A stretch of DNA of 64,000 bases from Chloroflexota bacterium. Lineage in GTDB: Bacteria > Chloroflexota > Anaerolineae > Anaerolineales > Villigracilaceae. The DNA lies in the NCBI GenBank assembly GCA_016191845.1, contig JACPVF010000015.1, positions 343,258-407,257 on the forward strand, written 5' to 3'. The position numbers and the translations under genes were made by a program. A model generated the notes under the pieces. That model was not told the origin of the DNA. It did not search any database and saw nothing but the letters and a program-made list of their open reading frames with translations. The number at the start of each line of letters is the position of its first letter. Position 1 is the stretch's first letter. This document shows positions 1 through 63,133 of the stretch, piece after piece.

Positions 1-232
1 TGGCCGAGGGGATGTCATTGTGCGGGGGGCAGGCGACCATGCACGGGGCGGGGTCAGGGCAGTGGATGCAGCGCGCAGCCTCGACCATGGCCCGCTCTGC
101 GTCAAAAGAGATGACCACGTCATCGAAATCACACGTGCGCTCCTCGGCGGGGCGCAAATCCAGGTCAAAGAAGGGGCGGTTGACCCTTTCCTTGCGGTCG
201 ATGGCTAGAAATTCACTGGGGACTGCCTGCAT
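1..232 (-). CDS. 5' part of a GltD-type (glutamate synthase small subunit-like) Fe-S/FAD oxidoreductase; the gene runs off the left edge
   Basis: My own minus-strand translation from the ATG at 232-230 gives MQAVPSEFLAIDRKERVNRPFFDLDLRPAEERTCDFDDVVISFDAERAMVEAARCIHCPDPAPCMVACPPHNDIPS. The C-x2-C-x5-C-x3-CP cluster after a DF..V segment is typical of the N-terminal Fe-S region of GltD/DPD-like proteins. It is absent from the ORF track because it has no stop in the window. Confidence 0.6.
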   Translation of the reverse strand, partial: MQAVPSEFLAIDRKERVNRPFFDLDLRPAEERTCDFDDVVISFDAERAMVEAARCIHCPDPAPCMVACPPHNDIPSA

Positions 233-624
233 GACGACGCCTCCGAACAATAAATTGCGCTTACAAAAGCTCCTGCCAGATTCGTGCTAATCCTTGGGCG
301 GCGGACTTAAGTCCATCCTGAGGTTGGCTCTACTAGTAACCTTGATTGTGATGATACCCAAGACCAAATAAATGCTCTATAGCTTTAATGTCACCAATGT
401 TGACGACAATCGTCACAATTTTAAGGTGCACAAAAATTCCCCTCCCGGTTTGCCCCCCGTTTACGCATATCTTATTTCTTTCTTACACACTTGCGTTAAA
501 ATCCACAAATGTTTTCATGCTTTCGATTGCCAGCCGCTGGTTCGATGTCTGCTGTAAGAAAGGTGCGGGTGGAGTTGACAGTATCCCTGGCGTGGAATTT
601 CACACTTTGTTCAAGGATGGCACC

Positions 625-40441: not shown

Positions 40442-42597
40442 TCCGACCCGATCGTATCGTCACCACCACCTGTCCCTACTGCGGCGTGGGCTGCACCCTG
40501 CAACTGCATGTCAAGGATGATTTCATCTTTAAGGTCACCTCGCCGTTCGATTCGCCCGTCAATCATGGCAACCTGTGTGTAAAGGGACGCTTCGGCTACG
40601 ACTACGTCTATCATCCCAAGCGGATCACCACGCCGCTGGTGCGCAAGATGCCGCAGAAGGCGGGGGAGCGCACCCAGGCCTTCGACCTGTCTGAGTGGCG
40701 CGAAGTCACTTGGGACGAGGCGCTCGATACTGTCGCCGACAACCTGGTCCGCATCTACCAGCAGGACGGTTCGGATGCGATGGCGGTCTACTGTTGCGCC
40801 AAAGCCACCAACGAGGATAACTACCTGCTCCAGAAGATGTACCGCGCCCTGTTCCGCACCAACAACGTGGACCATTGCACACGCCTGTGCCACGCAGGGT
40901 CGGTGGTGGCGCTGCAACAGGCGGTCGGCTCTTCGGCCATGAGCAACACCGCCTCCCAGGTCTTGTTGAATGACGTTTTCATCGTGACGGGCTCGAACAC
41001 CAGCGAGAACCATCCCATCATCGCCTTGCAGATGAAGGAGGCGGTCGAGAAGCATGGCGCAAAGATGATCGTGGTGGACCCGCGCCGCATCGACCTGGTG
41101 GACTTTGCCGAGCTGTGGCTTCCGCTCAAGCCTGGCACCAACGTGCCCGTCTTCTCGGCCATGGCGCAGGTTATCGTCAAGGAGAACCTGGTCAACTGGG
41201 GCTTCGTCAACGCGCGCACCGAGGGCTTCACCGAGTTCCTCGAGTCGCTGGAAAAGTTCACGCCCGAGTTCGCGGAACAGGTCAGCGGCGTACCTGCCGA
41301 AGATATCCGCCAGGCGGCGCGGATGTACGCCACGGCCGGGAATGCCGCCATCTACTGGGGCATGGGCATCTCGCAGCTCTCGCACGGCACCGCCTCCGCG
41401 CTGGCGCTGATCCATTTGGCCTTCCTCACAGGTCATGTGGGACGTGACGGCACGGGCCTGAATCCCCTGCGCGGACAGAACAACGTGCAGGGCGCCAGCG
41501 ACATGGGCGCCATGCCGTTCCATTACCCTGGCTATATGCGTGTTGACAACCCTGAGAACCGCGCCAAATGGGAGCGGGCCTGGAACATCGAGGAGGGTGG
41601 ACTGAGCCTCAAACTCGGCCTGACCACCACCGAGATCCTCAGCCATGCCCATGAGGGCGGCATCCGCGCGTTGTACATCATGGGCGAGAACCCGATGATG
41701 TCCGAGCCGAACCTGAACGTGACGCGCCATCACATGCAGCAATTGGAATTCCTCGTGGCGCAGGACATCTTCATCAATGAGTCTGGCGCGTTTGCGGATG
41801 TCTTCCTGCCCGCCACGCCCTTCGCCGAAAAAGATGGCACCTTCAGCAACACCGACCGCCGCGTCCAACGGGTCCGCGCTGCGCATCCTCCGCGAGGAGG
41901 GTCCCGCCCCGACTGGCAGATTCTGTGCGACCTGGCGCTGCGCATCGAAGCCCGCCTCGGCCATCCCACCGCCAAATGGGACTACACCCATCCCGAGCAG
42001 ATCCTGCGCGAGATGGCGGACGTCAACCCCGATTACGCGGGCATCACCTACGAGCGCATCGACCAGGTCGGGTTGATCTACCCCGTCCCCACACTGGACC
42101 ATCCTGGCACGCCGACTCTCTTCACCGAATCCTTCCCGCGCGGGCGTGGCAAGTTCGTCCCGCTGGACTATGTCCCCGTCAAAGAGGAGCCCGACGACGA
42201 GTATCCGTTCATCCTGACCACAGGCCGTCTGCTCGAGCACTGGCACGGCGGTACGATGACGCGCCACTCGGCCCTCAACGAAGCCTACCCCGAGGCCCGC
42301 GTGGAGATTCATCCCGCCGATGCGGAGATTCACGGCATTCGAAACGGCGACCCGGTCAAGGTCCAGAGCAGGCGCGGCGAGGTGGTCCTGCGGGCCACGG
42401 TCACCGAGAAAACCACCGTCGGTGTGGTCTTCATCCCCTGGCATTTTCAGGAGGCTGCGGCCAACCTGCTTACCAATGATGCGCTCGACCCACAGGCCAA
42501 GATCCCTGAGTTCAAGGCTTGTGCCGTACAGGTCTTCCCCGCGCGATTGGAGGACCTGCCCAATCCTGACGTACAGGTCTCGCGAGGCCGTTATTGA
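40438..42597 (+). CDS. Molybdopterin (bis-MGD) catalytic subunit of formate dehydrogenase, cysteine type
   Basis: It has [17 protein letters not shown] and CVKGRFG (the N-terminal 4Fe-4S of the Mo-bisPGD family). The active-site region [15 protein letters not shown] has Cys where Sec-type enzymes have U. A C-terminal beta-barrel domain is present. Confidence 0.9.
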
Positions 42598-42608: not shown

Positions 42609-44492
42609 ATGAAACATTTATTGGTGACTTTACTGGTCGTGGGATTGTTGTTGAGCCGATCGAATGCGTACGCCCAAACTGCGGGCGTGCGCATTTTTCT
42701 TTTGGACAGGAACGGCCGCCCTGTCACTGCGCTGGTGGATGGGAATCAGGTCAGTTTGAAGGTCGAGTTGGAGGCGGTCGCCAGTGCAGACACGCGGGTG
42801 GATTTCCTGCTGGCGGGGCTGGATTCGCCTGTGACGACCTGTACCGTTTCATCGGGCAAGTCGGCCTGTCAGAGCGACGCTTTCCCCGCCCTGGGCTGGT
42901 ATTGGAATCCGGACGGCACTCCTCAGCCCCAGCGGACTCTCGTCGCGCGTGCCGATGGTCAGATGCTAGGAGACAGCCTCTCGCTGACCGTCGCGCCGCG
43001 TCCCGTCGTGATGGTGCATGGTTTCAACGCCGATTACACCACCTGGCTAAACTATCTTGGTGATGATGGCTACCTCGCTTCAATCGGTCTGCATGGCTAT
43101 GCCGTCGGCGATGGACAGGTGCCTGGCATGTTGAATACGGGCACGTTGAAGGACCCCACCATGCGCACCAATACCATCGCGCAGAACGCCGTCATCCTGG
43201 GCGAATACATCGACAACGTGCAGCATGCCACGGGCGCCGAAAAAGTGGACTTGGTGGTACACAGCATGGGCGGCATGATCTCACGCTATTACCTTGACCG
43301 TGTCATGACCGATGTGGACGTGGCGCAGTTGGTCATCCTCGGCACGCCCATGGCAGGGTCAAGCTGCGCCAGCCTGCCTGCTGCGCTCGGACTGTTACTG
43401 CCTGCCACGCTGGAGATCGAGCCAAGTTACATGGTGGGGGTGTTCAACCAGCAGATCTATCGTCGGCATGGCGTGCCGTTCCATGCGCTGGCAGGGAAGA
43501 AGTTGATCGACGCGGTGCAGTCGCCATGCACACCCGTCCCGTCTGATCTGGTCGTGACCGTCGACAGCGTCAAGGCCATCCCCATGCCCGTGCAGGAGAT
43601 CACGCTGCTGCATACCGAGTTGAACACCTCGCCCGAGGTCTTCGCGGACTTTGTCAAACCGCTGCTGCAGACCCCGCCTGGGAAATTCGAGTCACCCGCC
43701 GACCCGCCGCCAGGCTCGAACGCACCCCTCTCGCAGCAGTTCAGCAAGGTCTACACGGGTCACCTCGCTCCAGGCGAGACACGCGATGTGGTCATCCACA
43801 TCGATGCGAATGTGAGCGTGGCGAACTTCGCATTGTACGATACCTCGCGCTCGCTGGATATCACGGTGACGGGTGCGAGCGGCAATCAAATTCAACTCGA
43901 CGCGCAGAAGAACGGCGAGATCCGCGTGGAGGACCCGTCCACGCTGGTGTATCTTGGCTATGGTTTCAACAATCCCAAGCCAGGCAAATGGATCGTCACA
44001 CTGCACACCACCGCATCGACTCCGCCCGAGGGTGCCGACTTTGCCATCAACGCCCAGTTCAACGGCGGCGCGACCTTGTCCAGTACGCTGGATGTGACCA
44101 CGCCCAAATTGGATCAGCCTGTGACCCTGTCCGCCAGCTTGAGCGATAATGGCGCGCCCGTCACTTTGGATAGCGCCGAGGCCATCCTGCACCTGCCCGA
44201 CGGCCTGACCACCCTGCCGATGCAGATCTCAGGCAACACAGCCACGCTGAGTTTCACGCCGAAGGCCACAGGCATCCACGGCGTGGAGATTAACGTCACG
44301 GCTCACGCGCAGGATGGGACCGCCATCGACCGCGCCGCCTTCCTGACCTTCGAGACCGAGCCTGCCGAATCGCTCATCACCGCCAATCGTCTGATCGCGG
44401 TGGGTGGGGTGGTTGCATTATGTGGGTTGGGGGTTGTGTTCCTGATGGTTATGATCGTATGGCGCAGGAAAGCAAAACCCGTCCGTGGCTGA
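42609..44492 (+). CDS. Secreted, C-terminally membrane-anchored alpha/beta-hydrolase (lipase/esterase-like) with beta-rich accessory domains
   Basis: Signal peptide [22 protein letters not shown] follows RBS GAGAGGAGAGAG. It has [14 protein letters not shown], the nucleophile elbow VVHSMGG and a C-terminal [29 protein letters not shown]. Confidence 0.8.
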
Positions 44493-44683
44493 ACTAAACC
44501 CATCCAGAGATGGACAAAACCAGTCCAGGAGTAAATAAAACCGATCCACGGTTGGACTAAATCCATCCATGGATGGATAAAAACAATCCAGGGACGGATT
44601 AAACCCATCCGTGGATGGATTAAAACCGTCCAAGGATGGACAAAACCCATCTACAGATGGACTTAATCCAGCTACAGATGATT
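44474..44683. repeat. Tandem array of ten ~21-bp units (A-tract plus CCATCC-Nx-GGATGG-like mini-palindrome)
   Basis: The units were read directly from the sequence (see finding). The average period is exactly 21.0 bp. The first unit overlaps the last codons of the upstream CDS. Confidence 0.9.
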
Positions 44684-44691
44684 AAATACAG

Positions 44692-44726
44692 AGTCCGCAA
44701 GTAAAACTTGCGGACTTCTCTTTTTT
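44692..44726. terminator. Terminator between the convergent lipase-like and arcA genes
   Basis: AGTCCGCAAG-TAAAA-CTTGCGGACT followed by TCTCTTTTTT. Confidence 0.85.
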
Positions 44727-44733
44727 CTCCTAT

Positions 44734-45987
44734 TTACTCATCCCTTGCAATAGGGCAGGTCATGCAGTGACCGCCGCCGCGGCCTTTGCCCAGCTCGAAG
44801 CCTGGGATGGCGATGACTTCCACGCCCACTGAGCGCATTTTGGCAATGGTGTGCGTGTTACGCTCGTAGACGACCACCACGCCTGGTTCGAGCGCTACCG
44901 TGTTGTTGGCATCGTCCCATTGCTCACGCTCGCGCTGATACTGGTCGCCGCCCGTCTCGACCACTGTCAGCTTGACCTTGAGCGCATCCTCCACAGCGGA
45001 GAGAATGTTTTTTTCGTGGGTCACATGAAAGTCGCCGTGCTTTTTGCCCGGGCGCAGGCTGATCGCCCGGATCTGGTCCACCACCTTCGGGAACAGGGTC
45101 ACCTTGTCGCGGTCGAGCATGGTGAAGACCGTGTCGAGGTGCATGTGGGCGCGGTCCTTGGTCATCACACAGGCGATGACGCGTTCAGCACTGCCGTTGC
45201 TAAAAAGCGCATCCGCCACCTGTTCGATCATGCTGCCCTGCGTGCGTTCGGACATACCGATCAGCACGGTCTTGTTGCCGATGGGCAGCACATCGCCGCC
45301 TTCGAGCGAAGAACGGCTGAAATTCTGCATGTTGAACTCGCCATCAGTCTGATTCGGGTACCAGAACGGGAAGCCCGCATCCTTGAACATCGGATGATAT
45401 TTGTAAATGGCGTACATGTTGAGCGACTCACGCCGCCGCGCGGGCCAGTACATCGGGTTGGTTGAGACGCCGTCGAAGATCCAGCAGGAGGAGTCGCGGG
45501 TGAAGAGGCTGTTGGGCAGGGGCGGCAGCAGAAAGGAGTTCATGTCGGTCAGGGCTGCGGCATGCAGGGAGATATGTTGATAGGCTGCCCAATCGATGCC
45601 CGACTCACCTGCGGTCATACCGCCGATCAAATGCCTGGCGAGGATCTCGGGCTGGAGCGCTATTAAATGCTGGCGGACCTCGTCCACCAATGCCCAGCCG
45701 ACGGTGTATTCCGTGGCGATCTGCTCGACGATCAGCCGCCGCGCTTCCTCGCTGGCCTGCAGGGTCTCGGTCAGCAGGTCCAGCACGTAATAGACTTCCA
45801 CACCGCGCTCGCGCATGACCTGCGTAAAGTGGTCATGTTCCAGTTGCGCGCGTTCCACCCACAACACGTCATCGAATAAAAGTTCGTCGTGGTTGGACGG
45901 GGTCAGGCGCTGCAGGCTCAACTCGGGGCGATGCACGATGACCTTGCGCAGCTTGCCTACTTCTGAATGGACGCCAAAAGGTTGCAT
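44734..45987 (-). CDS. arcA: Arginine deiminase
   Basis: It has [25 protein letters not shown] (the canonical ADI N-terminus) and a C-terminal [10 protein letters not shown] catalytic Cys motif. The ATG at 45987 has the SD CAGGAGACAG. The ORF-track start at 46056 reads through a repeat element. Confidence 0.93.
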
Positions 45988-46007: not shown

Positions 46008-46096
46008 CGCCCTGAGCGGAGCCGCGATAGCGGCAAAGTCGAAGGGCATGTGTCAATAAGATTGAGATTGCTTCGCGCTACCGCGCTCGCAATGAC
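46008..46096. repeat. Dispersed palindromic intergenic repeat, copy C (arcA 5' leader / divergent promoter region)
   Basis: It has CTGAGCGGAG[CCGCGATAGCGGC]AAAGTCGAAGGGC plus a degenerate partner arm GATTGCTTCGCGCTACCGCGCTCGCAATGAC. Confidence 0.7.
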
Positions 46097-46180: not shown

Positions 46181-46816
46181 ATGTCCAAACCGTATCAAAT
46201 CCCGCTCAACGAAATCCGCCGCGAGCATGTGGTGGTCAACTCGCGCTTCATCGCCACGCTGGCACCCGCGCTCAACATCGACGAGGCGCGGTCTTTCATT
46301 GCCCGCATCAAAAAGGAATTTGCCGACGCTTCGCACAACGTGCCCGCCTACATCATCGGCGGCGGCAACACGGTGACCGAGTACTTCTCCGACGACGGCG
46401 AGCCCGCGGGCACTTCGGGCCGCCCCGCGTTGACGGTGTTGCGCGGCAGCGGGCTTGGCGACGTGGCACTAGTAGTGACGCGCTACTTTGGCGGGACCCT
46501 GCTCGGGACGGGTGGGCTGGTCAAAGCCTACACCGAGTCGGCGCAGATGGTGGTCAACACCGTCGGGCGCGGACAGTTGGTCCTGACCCACCTGGCGATG
46601 CTGGCGATTCCCTACAACCTGCTGGAGCGTGTCCGCCTGCTGGTCAGCCGTCAGCGAGGACAGGTCCTCAGCGAAGACTTCGCCGCCGATATCACCCTGA
46701 CGCTGCAATTTCCCGTCGAGTCGTTCGAGGCCTTTCAAACTAACCTGCGCGAGCTTTCCGCGGGCAAGCTGCAAGCCGAGGTCATCGAGACGAAAGAGAT
46801 GATCGTTCCACTATAA
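46181..46816 (+). CDS. yigZ: YigZ/IMPACT-family (UPF0029) protein
   Basis: SRFIATLAP...ARIKKEFADASHNVPAYIIG...SDDGEPAGTSGRPAL..L......DVALVVTRYFGGTLLGTGGLVKAY is the IMPACT N-terminal domain signature. Confidence 0.85.
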   Translation: MSKPYQIPLNEIRREHVVVNSRFIATLAPALNIDEARSFIARIKKEFADASHNVPAYIIGGGNTVTEYFSDDGEPAGTSGRPALTVLRGSGLGDVALVVTRYFGGTLLGTGGLVKAYTESAQMVVNTVGRGQLVLTHLAMLAIPYNLLERVRLLVSRQRGQVLSEDFAADITLTLQFPVESFEAFQTNLRELSAGKLQAEVIETKEMIVPL

Positions 46817-46851
46817 AAATGAGGCGGACTTCTAAAGTCCGCCTCATTTGT

Positions 46852-63089: not shown

Positions 63090-63133
63090 GCGCTTCGACT
63101 TCGCCGCTATCGCGACTCCGCTCAGCGTAAATC
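63090..63133. repeat. Dispersed intergenic repeat, copy E (single long-form arm)
   Basis: The reverse complement reads CGCTGAGCGGAG[TCGCGATAGCGGC]GAAGTCGAAGCGC. Confidence 0.75.

Follow-up and report, generated by a model that had tools for sequence, protein, structure and literature searches.

Introduction

Bacterial minisatellites, the variable-number tandem repeats (VNTRs) used in multiple-locus VNTR analysis (MLVA), consist of imperfect head-to-tail units of 10-100 bp that occupy one locus and differ between strains by whole units. Here, we describe an array of 21-bp units in a stretch of 64,000 nucleotides (hereafter, the window) from a Chloroflexota bacterium of the Villigracilaceae (assembly GCA_016191845.1, contig JACPVF010000015.1, positions 343,258 to 407,257 of the forward strand). 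The array lies at the 3' end of a lipase-like coding sequence (CDS), facing a convergent arginine deiminase (ADI) gene. In our assessment, it is probably a single-locus minisatellite in the 3' untranslated region (3' UTR) of the FDH-lipase transcript, with no sequence-specific function. It shares the properties named above with the typical VNTR, and slippage or unequal recombination, the mechanism of VNTR loci, would also account for its changes. It differs in that its founder unit is traceable to the 21 bp at the end of the upstream CDS and in that its units are quasi-palindromic and carry an A-tract; its host, unlike the typical VNTR host, belongs to an uncultured lineage known only from metagenome assemblies.

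Several other described repeats resemble the array in part. Repetitive extragenic palindromic (REP) elements of enterobacteria and pseudomonads are about 35 bp long, occur in hundreds of dispersed copies, alternate in orientation within clusters and are linked to RAYT transposases; REP elements and BIMEs can lend stability to the upstream mRNA and can be bound by gyrase or IHF. Like the array, they are imperfect palindromes found at gene 3' ends in extragenic DNA that is transcribed, and REPs often lie between convergent genes. The array, in contrast, is a single locus of 21-bp units that all face one way, and no RAYT is in view. Plasmid iterons and the binding arrays of initiator or partition proteins share with the units described here the format of direct repeats, 17-22 bp long and helically phased. 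However, iterons stand beside a rep gene or in an origin with conserved number and sequence, whereas the array occupies a chromosomal convergent gap with no initiator gene close by, and its unit number varies between 0 and 9 across near relatives.

MIRUs have units of 46-101 bp. In mycobacteria, they are coupled to gene ends (PMC12548453). Both MIRUs and the array are made of tandem intergenic units with a frame that overlaps the flanking gene end, and MIRUs serve as VNTRs. The array, in contrast, has a 21-bp unit and a single locus after a stop codon, while MIRUs are dispersed and lie inside operons at start codons. Finally, BrickBuilt of Porphyromonas gingivalis, which belongs to the miniature inverted-repeat transposable elements (MITEs), has a leader and a tail with terminal inverted repeats and is present in 19 copies per genome (PMC4596501). 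Its 23-nt spacer-less intergenic tandem repeat, with imperfect units in variable number, is close to the array in format (~21-23 nt) (PMC4596501), but the array has neither inverted-repeat flanks nor other copies.

Results

Arrangement of the array

Read directly on the plus strand, positions 44474-44683 form ten head-to-tail units in 210 bp, all in one orientation and in exact 21-bp register throughout. Tandem Repeats Finder (TRF) reports 44473-44662 with a period of 21, 9.0 copies, 69% matches and 0% indels, together with a tail at 44635-44680. The pattern AAACCCATCCNNGGATGGA, allowing up to 3 mismatches, is matched 10 times in the window versus 0.23 expected, and every match falls within the array. 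On the plus strand, the matches lie at 44475+21k, with k=0, 1, 3, 4, 5, 6, 7 and 8; unit 2, a degenerate copy, and unit 9 are too degenerate to score. A preliminary description, made from the sequence alone, had proposed a ten-unit array whose motif does not recur in the 64 kb, and both statements are borne out by these analyses. Its exact 21-bp spacing also stands, whereas the unit boundaries drawn in it were uneven, running from 19 to 23 bp. Unit 0 is, as had been recognised, the end of the lipase-like CDS: the TGA stop codon (44490-44492) lies inside this unit and aligns with the TGG position of the later units.

Whole-unit variation among related haplotypes

Related loci were fetched from public assemblies through close lipase and ADI homologs and fall into nine haplotype groups. 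The FDH and ADI flanks are common to all of them, and array units match one to one between haplotypes. The window, in which the lipase gene is intact, carries nine units after unit 0. The same number is found in L077 and L078/79 (ADI 98-99%), which have a 1330-bp internal deletion of the lipase gene (window 42736-44065), and in L085, where the lipase gene is deleted. Eight units follow unit 0 in L016/L081/L083, in which unit 3 is missing, and in L086/L087, in which units 1-2 are duplicated and units 4-6 missing; L080 retains two after an in-phase loss of six units. The lipase gene is deleted in all of these. L001-3, in which the lipase gene is split into open reading frames (ORFs) of 222 and 407 aa, have no unit at all: an unrelated 263-bp segment replaces window 44441-44734 between flanks that are ~92% identical.

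Across all haplotypes, length changes within the array come exclusively in multiples of 21 bp. Whole-unit changes in copy number are seen across haplotypes with 93-99% ADI identity, and the array is down to 2 units or absent in genomes ~92-97% identical. Comparison of unit number between relatives, which the preliminary description had recommended, thus reveals whole-unit differences from 0 to 9 after unit 0. The reading that it had ranked last of three, a slippage-prone VNTR, is supported, as both the number and the make-up of the units vary among close relatives in 21-bp steps.

The more distant L004 (lipase 75% identical) provides a view of the locus with an intact lipase gene and no array. 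Its lipase CDS ends KKSVPG*, with a single unit-0-like 21-mer, aaatccgtccctggatgaacc, at the position homologous to unit 0 and no array beyond. The presence of such a CDS end in a genome that lacks the array supports an origin of the repeat from the CDS end.

The array-less allele has features of its own. L002 7176-7438 contains short repeats, CACAGATTT x3 and CTCCGTGT x2.9, and its terminator stem, CCCATC/GATGGG, equals the dyad core of the array unit; this stem may be what is left of a unit, or the likeness may be fortuitous.

Divergence and conversion between units

Pooled over 10 pairs of five haplotypes, the array has diverged by 12.2% (221/1806), compared with 13.3% (271/2030) at 4-fold sites of the ADI gene. 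The constraint test rests on this pooled value only, as the pair-wise ratios of array to ADI 4-fold divergence are inconsistent and run from 0.2 to 11. L085 and L081, for instance, have almost identical ADI genes and arrays that are 11% diverged. Such a spread implies that the history of the array is decoupled from that of the flank, presumably by recombination. Between the window and L016, array divergence is 19% (32/168) versus 14.6% at FDH 4-fold sites. In the closest pairs, the arrays are 2.6-3.7% diverged, comparable to the adjacent lipase 3' end (3.1-5.4%). As a whole, these comparisons are consistent with an array that drifts at a neutral-like rate.

Unit 8 of the window and of L077 differs from that of L078 and L081 at three sites, all of which read as in unit 9 (CTACAGATG). 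This pattern indicates a short conversion tract in unit 8, for which unit 9 is the likely donor.

Flanking genes and terminator

The features of the locus are collected in Table 1. The ORF of the lipase-like gene opens at 42594, with the likely start codon at ATG 42609. Its product has 912 homologs, mostly proteins of ~620-630 aa from Anaerolineales/Chloroflexota with abhydrolase/lipase Pfam domains, and the C-termini of all 120 listed homologs stop just past a transmembrane segment and a basic tail. Judged by the names of homologs, the organism belongs to Anaerolineales/Anaerolineaceae, Chloroflexota. Only the window and the distant L004 and L005 have an intact copy of the lipase-like gene. 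In L016, L080, L081, L083 and L085-87, almost the entire lipase CDS has been lost via one shared junction; the gene is decaying across the clade. The neighbourhood comprises genes for SMC, an NADH-dehydrogenase-like protein, FDH, the lipase, ADI, Impact_N and an ABC transporter, and is syntenic chromosomal DNA in the relatives. An exact look-up of the ADI protein of the window returned no record.

Table 1 Features of the array locus (window positions).
Feature	Position	Strand	Description and basis
Lipase-like alpha/beta-hydrolase CDS	42609..44492	+	Signal peptide, C-terminal membrane anchor and RRK tail
Unit 0	44474..44494	+	Last CDS codons K-P-V-R-G and TGA stop
Units 1-8	44495..44662	+	W-AAA-CCCATCC-NN-GGATGGA-Y, A-tract and quasi-palindrome; TRF, pattern, folds, unit-by-unit orthology (L077, L078, L085, L081)
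Unit 9	44663..44683	+	Degenerate terminal unit TTAATCCAGCTACAGATGATT
Intrinsic terminator hairpin	44691..44726	.	12-13 bp stem; scan and cross-haplotype pairing
Arginine deiminase (ADI) gene	44734..45987	-	Convergent with lipase gene; homologs annotated as arginine deiminase, with PF02274

Some 10 bp downstream of the array, a hairpin and T-run are found at 44691-44717 with the tail CTCTTTTTTC; the T-run lies on the plus strand, and a weaker one on the minus strand. Over 7 haplotypes, 95.6% of the stem cells are paired, and one compensatory pair (U-A to G-C) is seen in 3 haplotypes. The element at 44691-44726 therefore displays the features of an intrinsic terminator, namely a GC-rich hairpin, a U-run and a compensatory change in the stem. 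It ends the FDH-lipase transcript and probably also serves the convergent ADI transcript. Our scan found no plus-strand terminator-like site between the lipase stop codon and 44691, and the array should thus be transcribed. This agrees with the earlier proposal of a 3' UTR ahead of a separate canonical terminator.

Further sequence features were observed around the locus. The three terminator loop bases, AAA in the window (44703-44705), are TTT in L077, where AGTAAAACT becomes AGTTTTACT; the L077 loop and its closing bases are the exact reverse complement of the window's, a hairpin-loop inversion. In BLAST alignments of the relatives against the window, a ~43-bp reverse-strand match at 46807-46849 accompanies the forward alignment, which points to a local inverted repeat in the stretch that separates the Impact_N gene from the one after it. 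A dispersed repeat of 31 bp, GAGCGGAGYCGCGATAGCGGCRAAGTCGAAG, encloses a GCCGC-GATA-GCGGC hairpin and occurs at 46014-46044 (+) and 63093-63123 (-), two copies where 0 are expected. One of them lies ~27-57 nt upstream of the ADI start codon, and BLAST detects copies in L004 and L080 as well.

Hairpins and a possible role in RNA

Among the alternatives to a minisatellite without sequence-specific function, an element that acts at the RNA level survives best, although we regard it as unlikely. On the plus strand, some seven hairpins at the 3' end would stabilise the FDH-lipase mRNA by slowing 3'-to-5' exonucleases, as REP elements do. On the minus strand, each unit would form a hairpin followed by UUUU, a weak back-up terminator against antisense ADI transcription that would shield the upstream operon. 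Seven of the nine non-coding units are predicted to fold into hairpins of 5-7 bp, at -3.6 to -8.3 kcal/mol, and two units scored as terminator-like on the minus strand. The expected transcription of the array also speaks for such a role, as does its persistence after the loss of the lipase gene, which leaves it directly behind the FDH gene. A similar layout of gene end, array, bidirectional terminator and convergent gene is found in an unrelated contig, L038, described below.

However, across the 29 distinct units of all haplotypes, 77.2% of stem cells are paired, compared with 77.4% in column shuffles, and the array hairpins contain no compensatory pair. The compensatory pair of the terminator comes from the same data, so this data set is able to reveal selection on a helix. 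Transitions break pairs equally on both strands, so neither strand is favoured; the overall divergence of the array is at the neutral rate; L080 and L001-3 have kept the flanking genes with two units and none, respectively; and a strong terminator already adjoins the array. Rfam searches of the whole window at gathering scores, and of 44300-44800 at E-values up to 10, returned nothing credible, the best E-values (0.01-0.03) belonging to unrelated miRNA or sRNA models. As for the string of about nine small RNA stem-loops suggested in the preliminary description, hairpins can be folded in seven of nine units, and neither covariation nor pairing above the shuffled level accompanies them. We also considered a CsrB/Rsm-type sponge and rejected it, as most GGA motifs lie in the 3' arm of the predicted stem rather than in the loop and Rfam gives no match.

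Curvature, protein binding and similar arrays elsewhere

A DNA-level element is more doubtful still. Here, palindromes spaced by two helical turns would bind a dimeric protein, as an iteron-like array or as a nucleoid-protein or gyrase site, or a curved segment would handle supercoiling. The exact 21-bp register and the dyad in each unit are compatible with this proposal. A simple wedge model also predicts the array to be among the two most curved of 672 tiles of 190 bp, with a ratio of end-to-end distance to contour length of 0.69 versus a mean of 0.96. The prediction of intrinsic curvature made earlier thus holds in this model. The curvature predicted by the model is a physical consequence of A-tracts placed 21 bp apart and carries no evidence of function. 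Window 96-285 is the only other tile predicted to be as curved (0.72).

Several observations stand against a binding array. The conserved neighbourhood of the related loci, which is syntenic and chromosomal, contains no Rep, initiator, partition, transposase or integrase gene, in line with the preliminary description, which had noted no adjacent gene for Rep or an initiator, a transposase or an integrase. The cumulative GC skew, suggested there as a check on proximity to an origin or terminus, has no switch near 44.5 kb in the 64-kb window, and no DnaA box (TTATCCACA-like, up to 1 mismatch) lies within the array. With neither unit number nor unit sequence conserved, and the array shrunken or absent in relatives, the earlier likeness to iterons and initiator-binding arrays is not supported. 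The TCCA/TGGA positions are likewise not conserved in the clade, in which 4 changes fall on unit position 11 and 4 on position 12, and the array is located at gene 3' ends, not at a promoter. Two more specific candidates were discarded: an origin or DnaA cluster, for want of a skew switch and of a DnaA box in the array, and a restriction-site decoy, as GGATG/CATCC is over-represented in the window (282 versus 202 +/- 11 in dinucleotide-preserving shuffles).

Two arrays with a 21-bp period were found in other bacteria. In L038 (205-460; metagenome contig Ga0123338_10000177, Bacteroidota-like), ten copies of the unit GTCCAGAGCAGGATAAAAACT, with 76% matches and 3% indels, follow the end of a gene and precede a bidirectional terminator, opposite a convergent gene for an amylase with a type IX secretion system (T9SS) tail. 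Rfam returned nothing credible for this array. In L088 (2319-2612; ENA ERZ22865502 NODE_1156, a high-GC bacterium), fourteen 21-bp units occupy a 620-bp convergent gap. Their half-sites TCCA (13-14/14) and TGGA (12-14/14), separated by N4, are nearly invariant, and the linkers are almost random. This is the pattern expected of binding sites, and it counts in favour of a DNA-level element. It suggests that the L088 half-sites may reflect constraint, unlike the window array. The L088 array is also called as a 200-aa ORF (P0244) in antisense overlap with an EamA gene, and owing to the dyad it encodes I-H/Q-x-W heptads on both strands.

From these arrays, one might propose that phased 21-bp dyad arrays (TCCA-N4-TGGA / CCATCC-N2-GGATGG), located in convergent gaps behind a gene and ahead of a terminator, form a recurrent functional class of protein-binding, curved-DNA or hairpin 'buffers' for colliding transcription or supercoiling, a proposal to which we give little credence. 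L038 and L088 were retrieved by searches that select for likeness to the window unit, so that the similarity of motif is partly by construction, whereas their location was unselected. Convergent gaps are the most permissive sites for neutral insertions, and we treat the placement of these arrays as a lead, not as evidence.

Coding and mobile-element readings

It is very improbable, and largely refuted, that the array is coding, be it as a heptad-repeat extension of the lipase reached by stop read-through or as a separate small heptad protein on either strand. The array is in frame with the CDS as K-P-I-x-G-W-T heptads, with the TGA stop at the Trp position, and the same frame is open through all units in the lipase-deleted haplotypes. 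In the window, however, this frame is interrupted by stops at 44490, 44532 and 44664, L077 has an additional TAG, and the deleted haplotypes offer no start codon after the stop. Between orthologous units of the window and L016, changes show no excess at third codon positions (12/32), and Trp is repeatedly changed to Cys or Arg. Six-frame translation of three arrays revealed two minus-strand frames that are open across the window array; these are a by-product of repetition, as the consensus unit contains no stop in any minus frame. Neither Pfam nor a word-based protein search with the minus-frame peptide gave a match. A phmmer search of 1.84 billion representatives retrieved only mixed heptad-repeat ORFs that resemble translated 21-bp repeats, such as P0244 (IHRW heptads), one of which carries an immunoglobulin C1-set domain. 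The preliminary description had allowed for the possibility that the region is the diverged C-terminus of a longer CDS; such a tail is present in none of the 120 listed homologs, all of which end after the membrane anchor.

It is equally improbable that the array belongs to a mobile family with dispersed copies, be it REP/BIME-like, MIRU-like or a MITE that encloses a minisatellite in the manner of BrickBuilt. Its extragenic place at the 3' end of a gene and its palindromic units would fit, but the units all share one orientation, unit 0 is the ancestral CDS end, inverted repeats are found only between units and do not flank the array, and no transposase domain occurs among the neighbouring genes of the related loci. 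When one genome for each of 185,579 species was scanned with a degenerate two-unit pattern, 26 loci were obtained, close to the ~17 that we estimate for chance alone. The only array among them is the orthologous locus L016, in a metagenome-assembled genome (MAG) of the Anaerolineaceae, and the other 25 are single matches. No second array locus was found in any genome of the scanned collections, including the related MAG. The two-unit pattern found no further copy of the window unit in metagenome and viral contigs (checked by TRF or regular expression), and BLAST of the array against plasmids and phages gave no match. Apart from L016, the pattern scans brought up only the unrelated array of L038. 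In the window and the scanned collections, the earlier suggestion to look for the 21-bp consensus led to the orthologous locus alone, and to no second locus.

Discussion

The features of the array that were tested for a VNTR are all present, namely imperfect head-to-tail units, whole-unit copy change and a fixed locus with conserved flanks. We postulate that a tandem duplication at the very end of the lipase-like CDS, covering its last 21 bp, founded the array and that one copy with an improved palindrome, in which a G to A and an A to G substitution each add pairs, was then amplified. Units are now gained and lost as a whole, presumably by slipped-strand mispairing or unequal recombination between units, and are modified by short inter-unit conversion tracts and by point substitutions at about the neutral rate. 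Hairpins formed by the quasi-palindromic units in single-stranded DNA would favour slippage. Lying between the stop codon and the terminator, the array would be transcribed passively.

A number of observations weigh against an array free of sequence-specific function. It is kept in 8/9 haplotype groups, within a clade whose 4-fold divergence reaches ~0.2, and two independent deletions that destroyed the lipase gene have spared it. Small indels are absent from the array in every haplotype, the single one seen being 1 bp long and placed at its right-hand edge. Divergence of the array falls 2-4 times below that of pooled 4-fold sites (~9%) in the two closest pairs, a low value that the adjacent lipase 3' end matches in L077. 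Among orthologous units, A-tract and stem positions have changed 17 times in 13 positions, versus 30 times in 8 for loop and linker, a grouping that was chosen post hoc; the lower change in the former may also fit conversion between units. Finally, TCCA...TGGA-type 21-bp arrays recur in the convergent gaps of L038 and L088, with strongly position-specific conservation in the latter.

Under the minisatellite interpretation, the exact 21-bp phase follows from a mechanism that operates on whole units rather than from selection for helical phasing, and the predicted curvature, the small hairpins and the K-P-I-x-G-W-T frame follow from the repetition of a 7-codon coding piece. This calls for caution in sequence scans, as helical phasing, A-tract curvature, hairpins and in-frame heptads all come free from repeating seven codons. 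The array would gain in importance only if the convergent-gap arrays of three unrelated bacteria turned out to form a class under selection. As it stands, it would be a clean natural example of the birth of a minisatellite from a CDS end, with whole-unit gain and loss, conversion tracts and neutral drift traceable at the level of single units in eight haplotypes, and it could serve as a strain marker for an uncultured Chloroflexota lineage in metagenomes.

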